32,000 nucleotides of DNA from Telmatocola sphagniphila. GTDB lineage: Bacteria > Planctomycetota > Planctomycetia > Gemmatales > Gemmataceae. Under the pieces are notes generated by a model that worked only from the letters and a program-made list of their open reading frames with translations, had not been told where the DNA came from and made no database searches. Location of the stretch: the NCBI RefSeq assembly GCF_018398935.1, contig NZ_CP074694.1:2160001-2192000 (forward strand), given 5' to 3'. Made by a program: the position numbers and the translations under genes. Shown piece by piece: positions 15,880 to 21,295 of this stretch. The number at the start of each line of letters is the position of its first letter. Within the stretch, counting starts at the first letter, position 1.

Positions 15880-16593
15880 TTACTTCTTCTCTCGTAATGG
15901 AGAAATCATGCCATTTAACTTCGAGACTTTTGCCTCCAATTCCTTAACCAGCTTCTGAAAATCCGCACGCGGACGAAGAAGTTCTAAAGAGGCAGCCGAC
16001 TTCAAACGACCTACCCCGGTAAACCCCTCGGCAATTGCTTGGTGGAGCGATTTCATTGCCTGCTCAACTTCGGCTTTTCCTTCCTCAGTAGTAATAATTG
16101 AGGCTTCGTTTGATGCGATTGCCGCAAGTTCAGAATGGTAGCAGGCGAGGTTGAAATAATCGCGCGGGGCGAGCATTGGCAATTGCTCCACCAATTCAAT
16201 AGCACGGCGGATTGACCTGACTGCCTCTTTGGGTTGCCCCAAACGGCGCTGGACGGCCCCCAGTCCTGCGAGCTTGGATGCCAGTTCAATCCGCAGCCAA
16301 GCGATTGGAAGTTCGTTAACGTTGATCTTCTCGATCAGAGATAGCGCCTCTTGGCAATTCATCAAGGCCTGTTTGAGATTCCCGCCGGCGCGGAGTATCT
16401 GACCGGATTTAACAAGGCTGCGCGCTAATAGATAGTTTAATTGTGAACTGAAAGCTTCATCAGCTTTAGCATGTTTCAGGAAATAGGATTGCAATTTTTC
16501 GTAGAATTTTAGGGCTTCCGCAGAATTCCCCAGCTGCACGCATACATCTCCCAGTGTGTTGTAGCATTCTCTTAACGCGGGCAATGCCCGCAA
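15880..16593 (-). pseudogene. detached C-terminal TPR-like portion of a Ser/Thr kinase sensor protein
   Basis: 237 codons. The only start is a TTG three codons after a stop (TAA 16603-16605). The repeats are of the same style as the kinase C-terminal region. The ending is typical, by memory, of planctomycete sigma-linked kinases: ...RDYFNLACYHSELAAIAS...AIAEGF...LELLRPRADFQKLVKELE. Confidence 0.65.
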
Positions 16594-16610
16594 CCCTAGG
16601 TATTAACGAA

Positions 16611-16669
16611 CATGGCGTCGGTTTATCCAATGGAAGTAACCACACAACCGTTGGAGACTCGACGCCATG
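16611..16669 (+). promoter_or_regulatory. 10-bp inverted repeat enclosing the start codon of the 515-aa ORF
   Basis: CATGGCGTCG (16611-16620) and CGACGCCATG (16660-16669) form a perfect inverted repeat with a 39-nt spacer. The second arm contains the ATG at 16667. Confidence 0.3.
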
Positions 16670-18214
16670 CCGACGATCAACTCATTTACGAAGAAGTTCG
16701 CCGATTCCATTCTATCCGTTCTGGAATGTTACGACCGCGTGATTTTCAAAGGGTATCTTCCCTTTTTCAAGAATGGAGATCTCCACCGTCTCTGCGATAG
16801 CGGACTGGGCATGCGTCGCAAAGACTTCGTTCCCTTCCTGGAAGGTCTGTCCGAAGAACTGGTGGAACATGGCAAACGAGTCGCCGCCGAAGCCGGTGCT
16901 CCTTATCGGTTTCTCCAAGGGGAGCACACCAAAGAGCAGATCATCCGCGAGGAGATTGCCAAACGCAGTCTAAAGGAAGGACTGGTCGCCGTGCTGTGCT
17001 GCATGGAAACCTGTCGCGGCGTCAAGCTGCGTCCCGGCAAGGATCGACCGGAATTGTACTTCACGTCTCGCCCGCAACGCGTCGTCTATTTCTATTCTCT
17101 CGATCCCGAGTTCGGACTGATCCATGTCCGCATCCAAACCTTCTTTCCTTACAGCGTCCAAGTCTACGTCAACGGTCACGACTGGCTGGCCCGCCAGATG
17201 AACGAAAAGCAGATCGGCTTCCTTCAAAGCGATAATGCCTTCGTTCAACTCGACAATCCCGAAGCCGCTCAACGCCTGGCCGATCGCTTTGCCCATTTGA
17301 ATTGGATCAAAATTCTCGACCGTTGGGTCCGCCGGGCCAATCCGCTATTGAAAAAAGACTGGCTGAACCGCTGCCAATACTACTGGGTGATCGATCGAGC
17401 CGAGTACAGCACGGACGTTTTGTTCCGAAGTCGTGAAGACTTACAAGCTCTTTACCCGCGTCTGGTCGATCACTCGATTCAACAGTTCTCTGCCGACGAC
17501 ATTATGAAATTCCTGGGACGCAAGCTCTATCCTCAATTCGACGGAGAAATTCTTACTCTGGGCCGCAAGAAACGGGCACCGGGCACACGCGTCAAGCACC
17601 GCATGAAAGGCAATTGGCTGAAAATGTACGACAAATTCGAACGGATTCTCCGCATTGAAACAGTAATCAACCAGCCAGGCGAGTTCCACGTCCGCCGTCG
17701 ATGCATCCGCAAAGGGGTCGAAAAAATGGCCTGGTGCCCCATGAACAAAGGCGTGTCTAATTTCTATCGCTACCTCGAAGTCGCCCGCGCTTCGAATCGA
17801 CGCTATCTCGAGGCTTTGGCCGTTGTGGACGCTCCTTCGGTCACCGTGCGTCAACTCGACCAACTGAGTCAACCCGTCTCTCTGGGTAACCGGAAGCGAC
17901 GCGGCTTGAACTTGATGCACGCCGAAGAACAGAAGCTATTCCTGGCTGTCTTATGCGGCGATAATCGCATCAATGGGTTTCGCAACCACGACATCCTGAA
18001 AGCGTTGAACGAGCCCGCCCGGGATGCCGCTGAACGGCGTCGGCAAACGCAACGAGTCTCGCGACAATTGGGAAGGTTGCGCGCTCATGGATTGATTCGG
18101 AAAGTCCCGCGGGCGCATCGCTATCACGTGACGGATAAAGGCAATGCGGTGATGGCGGCGGCCGTTCGTATCCGCATCAAAGAGTTCCCGAAAGAACTCA
18201 AAACCGCGATTTAA
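16667..18214 (+). CDS. 515-aa protein of unknown class with a winged-helix-like C-terminus
   Basis: It is a long clean ORF with protein-like composition. Notable stretches are GNWLKMYDKFERILRIETVINQPGEFHVRR and the C-terminal QLGRLRAHGLIRKVPRAHRYHVTDKGNAVMAAAVRIR (MarR/wHTH-like). I see no DDE, HUH, Ser- or Tyr-recombinase, RT or RuvC/Zn-finger motif by eye. Confidence 0.8.
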   Translation: MPTINSFTKKFADSILSVLECYDRVIFKGYLPFFKNGDLHRLCDSGLGMRRKDFVPFLEGLSEELVEHGKRVAAEAGAPYRFLQGEHTKEQIIREEIAKRSLKEGLVAVLCCMETCRGVKLRPGKDRPELYFTSRPQRVVYFYSLDPEFGLIHVRIQTFFPYSVQVYVNGHDWLARQMNEKQIGFLQSDNAFVQLDNPEAAQRLADRFAHLNWIKILDRWVRRANPLLKKDWLNRCQYYWVIDRAEYSTDVLFRSREDLQALYPRLVDHSIQQFSADDIMKFLGRKLYPQFDGEILTLGRKKRAPGTRVKHRMKGNWLKMYDKFERILRIETVINQPGEFHVRRRCIRKGVEKMAWCPMNKGVSNFYRYLEVARASNRRYLEALAVVDAPSVTVRQLDQLSQPVSLGNRKRRGLNLMHAEEQKLFLAVLCGDNRINGFRNHDILKALNEPARDAAERRRQTQRVSRQLGRLRAHGLIRKVPRAHRYHVTDKGNAVMAAAVRIRIKEFPKELKTAI

Positions 18215-20649
18215 TAAAATACACAAAAAGTTTGCGCAAAAAGCGCAAAAGATAAGAAGAAAGACTCTAAAGGCTCCCGTACGGTAACGAGACTGGAATC
18301 GGATTTGTCAATGCGTTCACAGTTTTCCATGACTTGCAGAAGTGCCTCCTTCGCTTCCGCGGACCGTCCCATATCCGATAGTGCTGAACCGATGTCGCGT
18401 TGGATAAACGCTAGCATAATCTGAAATTTTGTGACCGCGGGGTAAGTGTCCGCCAGGTTCTTCGCGATGGCAGCCGCTTTCCTCAAAGATGGGAGAGCCT
18501 GTGCGGGTTTCCCCACATCCAATAAAGTGTCGCCGATGTAATAGTCGCTTATTCCCAGTGAGTACTGGTACCTCGAAATGTCGGAATGTGTACTTGCCAG
18601 CTTATTCCAAATTACGTGAGCATTATCATGGTTCGCTAACGCCGGCTGCCATTTACCAGCTTCCCAAAGTAACTTACCTGATTGCTCCAAAGTTCGAGCC
18701 AACTCTTGTTGAAGTTCCTCGGAGGTGGGATTGACCTTGGATAACTTCCTCAAGATGGCCGCGGCCATATCAGTTTCGGTCGACGCCTCCGAAGGCCTTT
18801 GCTTTGACCTATGAACCATGGCGAACCGCGTTAAGCTTTGTGCCACGACGACTTGGACCGCTTCCGTCGGAGAATCCTTTGCAAGTGCTGCGGCCGTATC
18901 GTGTTGTTCTCTAAAATTCAGCATCGCGCCGTCTAGATCACCTGTGAAAAGCAATATATAACCCACCGCACCCAAGCTTCGGGCTACATTAAGCTGAGTC
19001 TTCAAATCCGACCCTGGCGCAGCTGCCAGATTCCTCCGCATTTCCAGCGCCTTGCGATGTAGAGCAAGTGCCTTTGGCTTGGAACCGATTTGATCGGTTA
19101 GATCGGCAAGTTGAAAATACCCGTCCGCCAGGAGACTCCGCGATTTAGGATCGACTTCTCCTTCCAGAAGCTTTTCCATATCGCCATAGAACTCACCGGC
19201 TTCTTTCAAAAGCTGGTTTCGCAGCTCCTTGAATTGTCCACTCTTAAGCAATAAGTCCTCGCCGACGCCACTGTGCAGTTTAGCAATCGCTTTCTGGGCT
19301 AGTTCGAAGCGTTTCTCCACCTTGACTTGCTCGGCAACCAATTCAGTGTTCTTGGCTGTGAGGTCACGGTTGGCCTGGAGTTTCACCACTAACACTCCCA
19401 TAACTCCCGCCACGACGAGCGAAGTAATCACTGATGCGGTCGTCAAAGCTACGCGATTCTTTCTCACGAACTTGCGAAGACGATAGCTTCTGCTGGGCGG
19501 CACCGCAAGCACCGGTTCGCCTGCCAGATAGCGCTGTATATCCAAGGCAAAGCCATTCGCCGTCTCATAGCGGCGGGATCGGTCCTTTTCCAAGGATTTC
19601 ATGACGATCCAGTCCAATTCGCCCCGCATGAGTTTTTTTAAATGGGCAGGGTCGGTCTGCCGGCCAGCGGCCAAGGAGGGAAGCGTGTTAGTCGAGCTCA
19701 GACGTGTGCTCGGGCGGGGCGGTTCTTCCTCGCGAATCAGACGTCGAATTTCCTCCCAGGCCGCTTCTTTGAAGCGGTTCTTTTCCAGCGGTGTGGTCCC
19801 GGTCAACAACTTGTAGAGGAGCACTCCCAGCGAATAAATATCCGACCGCGTGTCGACGTCCAAGTTGTTGAGTTGCGCCTGCTCGGGAGACATATATAGC
19901 GGCGTTCCAAGTACTGTTTCGTGAGCGGTGTGAAGGGTTCGCTCCGTCAGCGATTGGTGCATGGCTTTAGCCAGTCCAAAGTCAATAATCTTGGGGACCG
20001 GCTTATCATCGTAGGGCGCGACCAGAATATTCGAAGGCTTGAGATCGCGATGAATGATTCCTTTGTGATGGGCATGCTGGACGGCTTGACACACTTGTGC
20101 AAATAACTGCAAACGTTCGGGGATGCTGAGTCGGGCGGTATCGCAAAACTCGGTGATCCGAATCCCTTTGATGTACTCCATCACGAAGTAGGGTCGGCCG
20201 GTCTCCGTCAAGCCCCCGTCGAGTACCTTGGCGATATTGGGGTGGTCCATAAGGGCCAAGGCCTGCCGTTCCCCTTCGAAGCGGGCCAACACAGACTTCG
20301 AATCCATTCCTGCCTTGATGAGCTTAAGTGCGACCTTTCGGCGCACCGGTTGCGTTTGTTCCGCGACCCAGACGGTTCCCATACCTCCTTCGCCAATCGG
20401 CTCCAGCAGCTTGTAGCGACCGGCGATGATTGTACCCGATTGCTCCTTCGGTAGGTACGCCCCGGTTTCTTCGGGATCGCCGGGCTCCGGTCGATCCAGG
20501 ATACCACGAACCCGGGCATCAGCTTCCAAGAGCAATTGAACTCGAGCGCGGAGCAGGGTGTCCGCCCCACAAGCTTCATCGAGAAACGCCTGCCGCTCGA
20601 TAGGGGAATTCTTTTCCAACGCCGCTAGAAATAACGCTTCTTCGGTCAT
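18211..20649 (-). CDS. membrane Ser/Thr protein kinase with TPR-like sensor region, C-terminally truncated and ending in a foreign tail
   Basis: I prefer ATG 20649 (MTEEALFLAALEKNSPIERQAFLDEACG..., a typical N-terminus), giving 812 aa. Kinase motifs are GEGGMGTVW, HRDLKPSNILV, DFGLAK and SPEQ. There is one TM helix (ALTTASVITSLVVAGVMGVLVV), then degenerate TPR-like repeats. The last about 20 aa (EPLESFFLSFALFAQTFCVFY*) are read from the inserted DNA. Confidence 0.85.
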   Translation of the reverse strand: MTEEALFLAALEKNSPIERQAFLDEACGADTLLRARVQLLLEADARVRGILDRPEPGDPEETGAYLPKEQSGTIIAGRYKLLEPIGEGGMGTVWVAEQTQPVRRKVALKLIKAGMDSKSVLARFEGERQALALMDHPNIAKVLDGGLTETGRPYFVMEYIKGIRITEFCDTARLSIPERLQLFAQVCQAVQHAHHKGIIHRDLKPSNILVAPYDDKPVPKIIDFGLAKAMHQSLTERTLHTAHETVLGTPLYMSPEQAQLNNLDVDTRSDIYSLGVLLYKLLTGTTPLEKNRFKEAAWEEIRRLIREEEPPRPSTRLSSTNTLPSLAAGRQTDPAHLKKLMRGELDWIVMKSLEKDRSRRYETANGFALDIQRYLAGEPVLAVPPSRSYRLRKFVRKNRVALTTASVITSLVVAGVMGVLVVKLQANRDLTAKNTELVAEQVKVEKRFELAQKAIAKLHSGVGEDLLLKSGQFKELRNQLLKEAGEFYGDMEKLLEGEVDPKSRSLLADGYFQLADLTDQIGSKPKALALHRKALEMRRNLAAAPGSDLKTQLNVARSLGAVGYILLFTGDLDGAMLNFREQHDTAAALAKDSPTEAVQVVVAQSLTRFAMVHRSKQRPSEASTETDMAAAILRKLSKVNPTSEELQQELARTLEQSGKLLWEAGKWQPALANHDNAHVIWNKLASTHSDISRYQYSLGISDYYIGDTLLDVGKPAQALPSLRKAAAIAKNLADTYPAVTKFQIMLAFIQRDIGSALSDMGRSAEAKEALLQVMENCERIDKSDSSLVTVREPLESFFLSFALFAQTFCVFY
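18231..18249 (-). terminator. intrinsic terminator oriented against the host (minus-strand) transcript
   Basis: In minus sense it reads TTTGCGC-TTTTT-GCGCAAA followed by CTTTTTGTGTATTTTATT. In plus sense the tail is A-rich, so it is not a terminator for the 515-aa gene. Confidence 0.5.
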
Positions 20650-20728
20650 GACACGTTTCTCCGGCGATCGACTCGTAGGAGCCGTCCCAACTATAGGCGC
20701 CCTCGGAGCTGTAAACCCGTCAGGTAAT

Positions 20729-21295
20729 TTAAGATTTTTTTTCCTCGAGCATGGCCGTGTACAGCCAGGCTCGGGCATACCGCCAGCCGCGCTCGGCCGT
20801 CGAAAGAGAAATACCCAGATGTTCGGCGATTTCCGGTAGAGTCATTCCTCCGAAAAATCGTAATTCCACGAGTTGAGCTTTGACCGGGTCATGGAGGGCG
20901 AATCGTTCCAAGGCCTCGTGCAGAGCCATCAAATTTTCTTCGGGAATCCCAGTTGCGAGAGCGTCAAGATCGACAGCCACGCGTTGCAGGTCGCCGCCGC
21001 GCTTCAGCCGGTCTTTCCGGCGGGCCGCTTCAATGAGAATGCGCCTCATCGCTACCGCGGCGGCGGCGAAGAAATGCCCTCGGCTAGCGAATTGTCGTTC
21101 CCCAAGCGGGCCCACCAAGCGCAAGTAGGCCTCGTGAACGAGGGCGGTCGCATCGAGAGTTTGGCCGGGGGCTTCGTTCGCCATGCGCGTCGCGGCGAGC
21201 TTACGAAGCTCCTCGTACACGAGTGGAAGGAGATCCGAGGCGGCCCGTCGATCCCCGTTATGTGCCCATTCAAGCAATTGAGTGAGATTCGACAT
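20729..21295 (-). CDS. ECF sigma factor of the kinase-associated (TIGR02999-like) type
   Basis: 188 aa. TQLLEWAHNGDRRAASDLLPLVYEELRKLA...GQTLDATALVHEAYLRL and the C-terminal HTH MTLPEIAEHLGISLSTAERGWRYARAWL are present. The gene lies 79 nt upstream of the kinase on the same strand. Confidence 0.9.
   Translation of the reverse strand: MSNLTQLLEWAHNGDRRAASDLLPLVYEELRKLAATRMANEAPGQTLDATALVHEAYLRLVGPLGERQFASRGHFFAAAAVAMRRILIEAARRKDRLKRGGDLQRVAVDLDALATGIPEENLMALHEALERFALHDPVKAQLVELRFFGGMTLPEIAEHLGISLSTAERGWRYARAWLYTAMLEEKKS

Follow-up and report, generated by a model that had tools for sequence, protein, structure and literature searches.

The window analyzed here, a 32,000-nt stretch of DNA from Telmatocola sphagniphila (contig NZ_CP074694.1, positions 2,160,001 to 2,192,000; all coordinates below count from its first letter), contains a mobile element of 1,695 bp at positions 16575–18269 on the forward strand. 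The element represents an undescribed family and is not a stray regulator gene. It carries one gene, whose product is a putative transposase of 515 amino acids (aa), and it has asymmetric ends with neither terminal inverted repeats (TIRs) nor a target-site duplication (TSD). On balance, we favor the interpretation that this is a copy of an autonomous insertion sequence (IS) of a new family, the transposase of which would be a Rep_trans-like tyrosine nickase, i.e., an HUH-independent counterpart of the enzymes of IS91 and IS200/IS605.

The borders of the element were established from the limits of homology. Three 76%-identical copies from peat metagenomes (L004–L006) match the window only from approximately 16573 to 18269. 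Eighty further family loci were added to this comparison; according to L004–L006 and more than 60 other family members in unrelated flanks, the element starts at 16575 (ACGCGGGC...) and stops at 18269 (...GACTCTA). Among the 63 elements for which both ends were available, lengths center on a median of 1,696 bp (mostly 1,670–1,710 bp), and each element has a single open reading frame (ORF); no second ORF was present inside any element examined.

The gene into which the element inserted is informative in this respect. A gene on the minus strand encoding a Ser/Thr protein kinase with TPR-like repeats is split by the insertion, and its parts are found in the minus-strand ORFs 18211–20778 and 15880–16593, which are in the same frame. 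In-silico removal of 16575–18269 (1,695 bp = 3 × 565) restores a single host ORF of 1,067 aa, and the BLASTP alignment of the fused protein with a distant kinase-TPR homologue (P0277) passes the junction without a gap. It follows that the insertion is real. The N-terminal (5') part of the interrupted gene occupies 18270–20778 (minus strand), and the C-terminal (3') part occupies 15880–16574 (minus strand). In the public annotation, the N-terminal fragment (18211–20778, minus strand) is an 812-aa “serine/threonine protein kinase” (P0276) of T. sphagniphila; the final ~20 codons of this annotated fragment run into the element, and the true C-terminal 231 aa are encoded at 15880–16574. The gene between the two parts, at 16667–18214 on the plus strand, is QVL33970.1/KIH39_08705 of the planctomycete T. 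sphagniphila. The initial annotation of this DNA, made from the letters alone, had correctly placed one 515-aa gene inside an insertion. Its borders for that insertion, 16591–18275, keep the host frame too, but they are wrong, and the left one falls within the left hairpin of the element itself. The duplication of 4 bp that it proposed (CCCG at 16587–16590 and 18276–18279) is a chance match: duplications between left and right flanks were found in 0–1 of 57 insertions.

The element belongs to a large family. T. sphagniphila has at least seven near-identical loci, which differ from one another at 0–4 residues (≥99% amino-acid identity). This count, which the initial annotation had suggested making, was derived from protein accessions: a cluster at 90% identity contains five distinct sequences, one of them with at least three accessions. 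A word-indexed search returned at least 3,645 homologues, and an exhaustive profile search returned 9,551 clusters at 50% identity (E ≤ 1e-3). The best 120 homologues are nearly all unannotated or designated “hypothetical protein,” and they typically reside on metagenomic contigs of 1.7–2.3 kb, a length range that is the signature of an assembly-breaking repeat. Single-gene elements of ~1.7 kb occur on contigs of Planctomycetota and Verrucomicrobiota and on unassigned metagenome contigs; soil and peat metagenomes contain the family in abundance. The window itself (32 kb) holds no second copy and no miniature derivative.

Relatives with 22–33% identity are located on plasmids of Paraburkholderia, Burkholderia, Caballeronia, Rhodococcus, and Mycobacterium, often with several (2–4) per record. 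The plasmid members include L087:3989–5503 (Paraburkholderia phytofirmans pOLGA1) and hits H2–H14. They are annotated as “hypothetical” or as “ArsR family transcriptional regulator,” and PGAP does not call these proteins transposases; these labels are probably a systematic misannotation of an IS. Given at least seven near-identical copies, thousands of relatives, and conserved ends in unrelated flanks, the “undescribed transposon” that the initial annotation had offered as one option is borne out. Its other option, that of a regulator gene brought here in some other way, is effectively refuted: the copy number, the conservation of the ends, and the target motif described below all contradict it.

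How do the ends of the element look, and where does it insert? To answer these questions, flank statistics were compiled from 67 distinct left junctions, 66 right junctions, and 57 insertions for which the two flanks were available. A left hairpin, ACGCGGC-loop-GCCGCAACC, and a right hairpin that is followed by ...AAGACTCTA, with no TIR or TSD, are common to more than 60 independent insertions. Throughout the further loci, the left end conforms to A(C/G/A)GCGGC-loop-GCCGCAACC and the right end to ...(A/T)AGA(C/A/G)TCTA. The initial annotation had described the terminal inverted repeats as poor and had noticed hairpins at both ends; in fact, no TIRs were found at the element ends, and both hairpins are present. 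The left-end subterminal hairpin (16577–16591, plus strand; GCGGGC-AAT-GCCCGC) is followed by a conserved AACC and lies in a region with a folding z of −5.8. The right-end subterminal hairpin (18231–18249, plus strand; TTTGCGC-AAAAA-GCGCAAA) is situated 20 nt before the end of the element and has a DNA-folding z of −4.6.

These hairpins are family traits. Among ~60 family members, the left hairpin has a GC stem of 5–6 bp positioned 2 nt inside the element and a loop of 3–8 nt; the stem is a near-invariant GCGGC/GCCGC in this clade and CCGG/CCGG in the Paraburkholderia copy. At the right end, the median perfect stem across 68 loci is 6 bp (vs. 3.7 bp in shuffled sequences) and ends ~22 nt before the terminus. 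The right stems are clade-specific (TTGCGCG/CGCGCAA, AACTTCTCCGCA/TGCGGAGAAGTT, and AAGTCTTC/GAAGACTT). They were identified by a per-sequence search; RNAalifold found no consensus structure, as the alignment does not keep the hairpins in register. Hairpins at both ends are also present in the Paraburkholderia copy, whose protein is 33% identical. The ends of a distant actinobacterial copy (L088) could not be defined.

The host tetranucleotide immediately 5' of the element is CTTA (16571–16574, plus strand), which agrees with the consensus C-Y-T-A and is not duplicated. In the 67 left junctions, position −4 is C in 65, position −3 is C in 37 and T in 26, position −2 is T in 59, and position −1 is A in 66; the sequence further upstream is random. 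Overall, C-Y-T-A forms the left flank in ~95% of junctions. The element is thus placed immediately 3' of C-Y-T-A, with a 1-nt ambiguity that makes the T/A boundary equally possible. At the other end is a conserved terminus, AAGAAAGACTCTA (18257–18269, plus strand), and the putative right cleavage falls after its TCTA. Of 66 elements, 60 end in TCTA irrespective of the tetranucleotide on the left flank; this sequence is the element's own look-alike of the target site. The first base 3' of the element is A in 49 of 66, followed by random sequence. Identity between the left 4-mer and the last four bases of the element was observed in only 1 of 57 insertions. Further, in one clade (L074–L086), 7 independent insertions are preceded by CCCA, and the right end is still TCTA. 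Because the flanks are not duplicates of one another and the CCCA clade retains the right TCTA, we conclude that the target is not duplicated; the same two features of this clade and of the right end rule out a duplication of TA or CTA. Inspection and junction folds disclosed no consistent guide-type complementarity between the target 4-mer and the sequence that follows the left hairpin.

In three loci (L024, L026, and L063), the right end of the element abuts another left end, resulting in junctions of the form TCTA|A(C/G)GCGG. The direct joins are at L026:1761–1780 (ACGCGGCTAT...) and L063:1840–1875 (ACGCGGCTTCGCCGCAA...). In L024 (2647–2717), a 71-bp miniature stands right after the right end of a full-length copy and comprises only a left hairpin (AGGCGGCAGAGCCGCAACCGCAG) and a right hairpin with terminus (...TTTTGCGCGCAGCGCGCAAAAGTTACAAAGAAAGAATCTA); this derivative, which resembles a miniature inverted-repeat transposable element, signifies that the two ends alone form a unit. 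Joins of a right end to a left end would be expected if TCTA|A at a resident right end were itself used as a target, or if there were circle junctions. In a hypothetical junction of this kind, the cut site is mostly unpaired between the hairpins, and it is fully unpaired in 28 of 61 cases. Circular terminal overlap was found in none of the contigs.

This end anatomy (unlike ends, two hairpins, CYTA| and TCTA| sites, no duplication, and tandem or junction joins) is that of IS91 and IS200/IS605. IS91/ISCR elements insert 3' of a specific tetranucleotide without target duplication, have unlike ends, and encode an enzyme related to rolling-circle Rep proteins. However, the IS91 enzyme has an HUH fold with two tyrosines on a helix, whereas the present family has no HUH motif and no such Pfam match. 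IS200/IS605 elements likewise have subterminal hairpins, lack TIRs and TSDs, and insert 3' of a tetranucleotide that resembles the right cleavage site; they differ in their transposase (a ~150-aa HUH protein, Y1, PF01797, as opposed to a 515-aa protein of TBP-like fold without such a match), in the distances from hairpin to cut, and in their guide–target pairing, which has no simple equivalent here. The absence of TIRs and TSDs and the conserved, structured non-coding left end are also shared with IS110/IS1111, but in the present family the left non-coding region is only ~90 nt long, the flanks have no extended specificity of the kind that a guide RNA would confer, and the protein has no RuvC-like fold.

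We turned to the 515-aa protein for indications of its activity. It has no match to transposase models in Pfam, NCBIfam, PADLOC, PHROGs, or the sequences of the PDB; the only signal is a weak winged helix-turn-helix (wHTH). This faint match, at aa ~459–503, coincides with the basic, wHTH-like C-terminus noted in the initial annotation (Pfam HVO_A0261_N, E = 0.0016, in 42 of 94 family members; PDB MarR, E = 0.013). Including the Foldseek resemblance to ArsR/SrnR (probability 0.5–0.75), we delimit a MarR/ArsR-like wHTH at aa ~419–506 (17921–18184, plus strand). A stand-alone MarR/ArsR regulator (~100–150 aa, single-copy, and syntenic) was considered and rejected: the wHTH makes up only the last ~90 of the 515 aa, and the gene is multi-copy in a mobile unit. 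The full-length AlphaFold model (pLDDT 86.6) has no Foldseek match in the PDB at E ≤ 1e-3, and its C-terminus resembles only a wHTH of the ArsR/MukE type. RNase H-like, RuvC-like, HUH, resolvase, and integrase folds are all missing from its PDB matches.

The remainder of the protein, aa 1–395 (16667–17851, plus strand), is a candidate catalytic core that was modeled separately with AlphaFold2 from 109 diverse sequences (pLDDT 96.1, pTM 0.93). The model is a double saddle like that of the TATA-binding protein (TBP), with a topology of two beta-alpha-alpha-beta(4–6)-alpha modules. When it was compared with the PDB using Foldseek, the top-probability matches were TBPs (3eik, 0.75, with a TM of 0.45 over the TBP length; 1mp9, 0.66; 3oci, 0.57; E 0.03–0.08). 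Compared with BFVD, five matches at E ≤ 1e-3 were obtained, and several TBP-fold proteins had probabilities of 0.94–1.0. The Foldseek analysis that the initial annotation had recommended for detecting RNase H-like or HUH folds was therefore negative for both and instead disclosed the TBP-like core. The likeness to TBP itself is at the fold level only (TM ~0.45): the order S1-H-S2-5-H occurs twice and builds a saddle in both, but TBP is not an enzyme and lacks the invariant D/E/Y/K residues of the family.

Those residues were identified in ~100 relatives with 28–49% identity and in four additional relatives with 24–33% identity. D23, R24, Y141, Y143, G150, P161, N169, E246, Y321, R329, and E331 are invariant; K89, E114, N190, K319, K323, and R379 are conserved at ≥90%. 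All of the conserved polar residues (D23, R24, K89, E114, Y141, Y143, N169, N190, E246, K319, Y321, K323, R329, E331, and R379) are retained in the 24–33%-identical proteobacterial and actinobacterial members. Some 16 polar residues (D, E, Y, K, R, and N) are invariant down to 24% identity, and they have an i/i+2 spacing on strands, which typifies active sites rather than repressors. The best-conserved stretch of the family is KMYDKFERILRIETV, in which K319, Y321, K323, R329, and E331 are invariant or nearly so; the initial annotation had singled out the same stretch as a conserved-looking core. A second invariant tyrosine pair, Y141-x-Y143 (17087–17095), lies within the first module, on a long strand that is the pseudo-symmetric counterpart of the K-x-Y321-x-K strand. 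By analogy to Y2 HUH enzymes, Y141 or Y143 may act as a second nucleophile.

None of the canonical transposase classes accommodates these features. The family conserves no HUH motif, and the sole histidine with ≥90% conservation is in the wHTH. There is no Pfam match to serine or tyrosine recombinases and no invariant serine, and the core is beta-rich, unlike the helical integrase fold. With respect to DDE enzymes, neither an RNase H-like fold nor TIRs nor a TSD were found; with respect to the DEDD enzymes of IS110/IS1111 (a RuvC-like domain and a C-terminal Tnp domain), there was no NCBIfam or Pfam match and no such Foldseek match in the PDB. The initial annotation's view that the protein fits none of the DDE, DEDD, HUH, Ser, Tyr, or TnpB classes consequently holds by sequence and by fold. 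Its broader statement that no mobile-element enzyme class fits is not supported, as the core is TBP-like and KMYDK...LRIE corresponds, in our comparison, to motifs III and IV (YxK, RxE) of Rep_trans.

The papers cited here describe two groups of DNA-cleaving enzymes with a TBP fold, Rep_trans and Rep-Arvir; they have a tyrosine on a strand and a D/D/E metal site, and they act at DNA hairpins (PMC4797284, PMC5714925, PMC13107129). The Rep_trans initiators (pT181 RepC/RepD and RepSTK1, as well as CTXphi RstA and the MOBT relaxases of ICEBs1 and Tn916) form a TBP-like crescent of two 5-strand modules (PMC4797284); the conserved motifs, N' (D), I (RxD), II (T/SxY/ExG), III (YxKxxE), and IV (W/LxRxE), are borne by strands 6, 9, 10, and 11 (PMC4797284, PMC5714925). 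Reviews place Rep_trans only in plasmids, phages, and the relaxases of integrative and conjugative elements (ICEs) (PMC13107129, PMC5714925). In the recently described archaeal Rep-Arvir proteins, a MarR-like wHTH accompanies the TBP-like catalytic domain and the origin is a hairpin; their fold relationship was detectable only by Foldseek against viral models (PMC13107129).

For comparison with the family, eight Rep_trans proteins were aligned, with the solved RepDE as the anchor. A motif N'-like stretch, CYDRVIFKGYL (aa 21–31; 16727–16759, plus strand), lies on strand 1 and includes the invariant D23 and R24; hhalign pairs it with the Rep_trans stretch xFDAMTIVGNL/SIDRITIVGxL that bears the metal ligand D46. 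In consensus form, (S)xD46(R)xTxxG52xL of Rep_trans is set against F/Y-D23-R24-x-x-F-x-G29-x-L. A motif I-like RAEYSTD (aa 244–250; 17396–17416, plus strand) on strand 239–253 was recognized by eye and was not recovered by hhalign; here, R140-x-D142-x-A144-x-D146 is set against R/Q244-x-E246-x-A/S-x-D250. Motifs III and IV would be represented by KMYDKFERILRIE (aa 319–331; 17621–17659, plus strand) on adjacent strands, the former found by hhalign and the latter by eye: R189-x-Y191-x-K193 against K319-x-Y321-x-K323 on strand 316–323, and W211-R212-x-E214 against L328-R329-x-E331 on strand 327–334. The two best local hhalign alignments pair Y321 with the catalytic Y191 of RepD (I-R-I-Y191-N-K) and D23 with D46. 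The motif order N'-I-III-IV and the spacing within the motifs are as in Rep_trans, and the motifs fall on predicted strands that are consecutive in the second module. Three hallmarks of Rep_trans therefore have likely equivalents: a curved TBP-like sheet of two pseudo-symmetric modules in the predicted structure, a candidate catalytic tyrosine on a beta-strand in a YxK motif, and a candidate metal triad D23/E246/E331, with E in place of D in motif I.

Beyond the active site, a separate DNA-binding domain, the order of the acidic ligands (N'-D, motif I, motif IV RxE), hairpins, and residence on mobile elements are common to the family and to Rep_trans (PF02486; RepC/RepD, RepSTK1, RstA, MOBT relaxases). 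The family departs from Rep_trans in its core, which is ~150 aa larger, in the use of a MarR-like wHTH for DNA binding, and in constituting a multi-copy, 1.7-kb chromosomal element and not a plasmid, phage, or ICE. Rep-Arvir (DUF7845, PF25227; RepSNJ2; PMC13107129) is similar in another way: a TBP-like domain precedes a MarR-like wHTH, the cis site is a hairpin, the essential residues of Rep-Arvir form a comparable pattern (an N-terminal acidic residue on strand 1, E25 vs. D23, then a Tyr and, some strands on, a Glu, Y283/E303 vs. Y321/E331), and the relationship is found only by Foldseek against viral models, not against the PDB. However, Rep-Arvir is a replication protein of archaeal viruses and plasmids with a different tyrosine context (KHYYM vs. 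KMYDK), whereas the present family is bacterial and IS-like.

Several points weigh against this assignment. The hhalign alignments to Rep_trans are not significant (E 0.12–0.31, probability <1%), and larger profiles did not help. A match to PF02486 (E ≤ 10) or to DUF7845/PF25227 was obtained for 0 of 94 family members. Motif II (T/SxY/ExG) is unrecognizable, with only a G306-x-R remnant on the strand preceding motif III; the D of motif I in Rep_trans is replaced by E; and the correspondences in motifs I and IV were matched by eye. The family has two further invariant tyrosines, Y141 and Y143, and the putative cleavage sites flank the hairpins, whereas pT181 is cut in a loop. The pT181 nick, probably at ...TACTCT|AATAG... 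in the ICRII loop, resembles GACTCT(A)|A of the element. Finally, that the DNA moves as a single strand we infer purely by analogy with the Rep_trans initiators, IS91, and IS200/IS605, as is the case for the mechanism proposed below. Because there is no PF02486/PF25227 match, the hhalign scores are not significant, and motif II is unrecognizable, we call the protein Rep_trans-like and not a member of Rep_trans. Still, we lean toward its being a true, very distant Rep_trans homologue with the same chemistry.

Enzymes of the Rep_trans type nick one strand with a tyrosine, remain attached to the 5' phosphate, and rejoin it to a 3'-OH; by the same chemistry, HUH enzymes move IS91 (Y2, by rolling circle) and IS200/IS605 (Y1, as single-stranded DNA, by “peel and paste”). 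If the present protein is such an enzyme, transposition could proceed as follows. The only gene of the element would encode the transposase, whose TBP-like saddle would carry a Rep_trans-type site composed of a metal triad (D23, E246, E331) and the nucleophile Y321 in the K-x-Y-x-K strand. The MarR-like winged helix probably reads the end hairpins, and the saddle may bind them as well. One strand, the plus strand, would be nicked after TA at two similar sites: in the host DNA, the C-Y-T-A that directly precedes the left hairpin and, at the right end, the TCTA that belongs to the element. Y321, possibly joined by a second nucleophile (Y141 or Y143), would cut at both borders, form a 5'-phosphotyrosine link, and allow the strand to be rejoined to a 3'-OH. 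Transfer of the strand could occur via a circular junction (TCTA-ACGCGG) or via rolling-circle copying, and the strand would be joined 3' of a new C-Y-T-A without duplicating the target. A hairpin in the 5' untranslated region (5'-UTR) would mask the Shine–Dalgarno (SD) sequence and the AUG, keeping the synthesis of the transposase low.

Other mechanisms could account for some of the same observations. A site-specific recombinase that acts on double-stranded DNA (dsDNA) might form a dsDNA circle (...GACTCTA-ACGCGG...) and join it to C-Y-T-A through a short shared TA core, as IS110/IS1111 do. Such an enzyme would suit the lack of TIRs and TSDs, the TA found at both borders in 51 of 57 insertions, the junction-like TCTA|ACGCGG joins in L026, L024, and L063, and the conserved non-coding left end. 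We nevertheless regard it as unlikely: in the 7 independent insertions of the CCCA clade, the left border is CA but the right border is TA, the flanks beyond −5 are random and so offer no visible guide-type recognition, no DEDD/RuvC, serine, or tyrosine recombinase fold or motif is present, and the active-site pattern resembles that of a single-strand nickase. The TA at both borders of most copies, taken with several invariant acidic residues, might also bring to mind a cryptic DDE cut-and-paste IS that duplicates TA in the manner of IS630/Tc1-mariner. To this proposal we give almost no credence. It is contradicted by the lack of terminal inverted repeats, by an invariant right TCTA opposite a left 4-mer that varies (CCCA in one clade), by the absence of an RNase H-like fold and of a DDE match in Pfam or NCBIfam even with a model of pLDDT 96, and by an order of secondary structures that is not beta-beta-beta-alpha-beta-alpha-beta.

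The protein need not be the transposase at all. The element could be non-autonomous, with its ends processed in trans by, for example, an IS200/IS605 TnpA, and the 515-aa protein would then be a DNA-binding passenger, either a regulator or a TnpB-like accessory. The wHTH is the sole domain recognizable by sequence, PGAP names relatives “ArsR family transcriptional regulator,” and the layout of the ends is like that of IS200/IS605. Yet the one-gene, ~1.7-kb layout is constant across planctomycete, verrucomicrobial, and unassigned metagenome contigs, no element has a second ORF, the ends co-vary with the protein (the stems are clade-specific), and ~16 invariant polar residues form an active-site-like pattern. 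A passenger role thus appears quite improbable to us. More doubtful still is that the element is an integrated minimal rolling-circle replicon (a Rep with double- and single-strand origins) that integrates only occasionally. The combination, in 1.7 kb, of two hairpins with a Rep_trans-like protein could be construed in that way, as could contig L026, which passes from a right end straight to a left end. This scenario is at odds with the lack of contigs having circular terminal overlap, with the chromosomal or plasmid flanks and defined target motif of every copy examined, and with a single genome that has at least seven copies in its chromosome, including one that interrupts a gene. We retain an autonomous IS with a Rep_trans-like nickase as the preferred explanation.

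Prokaryotic transposases are at present assigned to a handful of enzyme classes. Our literature searches found a description of neither this family nor any Rep_trans-type transposase, and we consider the chances evenly balanced that this is the first IS family with a transposase from the Rep_trans/TBP-fold lineage of tyrosine nickases. If it is, a further class would stand beside the DDE, DEDD, HUH, serine, tyrosine, and Cas1 enzymes. Non-HUH rolling-circle initiators would also have given rise to transposons, as HUH initiators did to IS91, IS200, and Helitrons, and both of these unrelated nickase superfamilies would span plasmids, phages, relaxases, and transposons. It would moreover be a compact one-protein system with a short, defined target, C-Y-T-A, beside a hairpin. 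Should the enzyme assignment fail, this would still be an undescribed IS family with a transposase chemistry to be found. In either case, a common IS passes as a “hypothetical protein” or an “ArsR regulator” and escapes Pfam, NCBIfam, and PGAP. An unrecognized IS family of this sort breaks assemblies and hides gene disruptions, such as that of the kinase gene described here.

The 5'-UTR hairpin invoked above spans 16611–16669 (plus strand; inverted repeat I13, supported by the RNA fold) and pairs both the SD sequence and the AUG: its 3' arm holds the GGAG SD and extends as far as the AUG. As RNA, 16575–16675 folds with an energy of −44.9 kcal/mol (z = −5.8). The closing stem, GGCGT(T/C)C.../...G(A/G)ACGCC, is kept in 55 members with compensatory changes; one pair is U-A in 37 and C-G in 15. 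Judging from the sequence, the hairpin probably throttles translation of the transposase by occluding the SD and AUG. In IS200, a stem-loop sequesters the ribosome-binding site. Translational occlusion is also known from ISPpu9 (PMC8450116). No Rfam match was obtained for the element or for the whole window, and the window contains no tRNAs.

Some loci deviate from the standard architecture. In eight (L029, L035, L040, L041, L056, L064, L066, and L070), an additional 170–700 nt separates the left hairpin from the one in the 5'-UTR. In L029 (142–851), this DNA encodes, on the opposite strand, part of an integrase-type (rve-like) transposase. The possibility that the longer elements contain an accessory gene was accordingly ruled out, the extra ~700 nt of L029 being a piece of another IS, and the insert points to a nested or rearranged IS. 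Among the close copies, L004 and L005 have at least 491 nt of left flank in common and differ in their right flanks, and L004 and L006 share the right flank and differ in the left. Possible causes of this mosaic are recombination among copies, chimeric assembly across the repeat, and one-ended mobilization.

Two further observations concern hairpin-forming DNA. The insertions L008, L010, L023, L061, and L082 are positioned just 5' of long, perfect palindromes (in L010, ATGCTGCCGGCATCTGGAACC/GGTTCCAGATGCCGGCAGCAT), which suggests a preference for sites beside hairpin-forming DNA such as terminators and REP-like repeats. On the minus strand, the right hairpin of the element (18231–18249) is followed by CTTTTTGTGT and scores as intrinsic-terminator-like, and AAAAC precedes the hairpin in many members; the right hairpin could thereby stop antisense transcription from entering the element.

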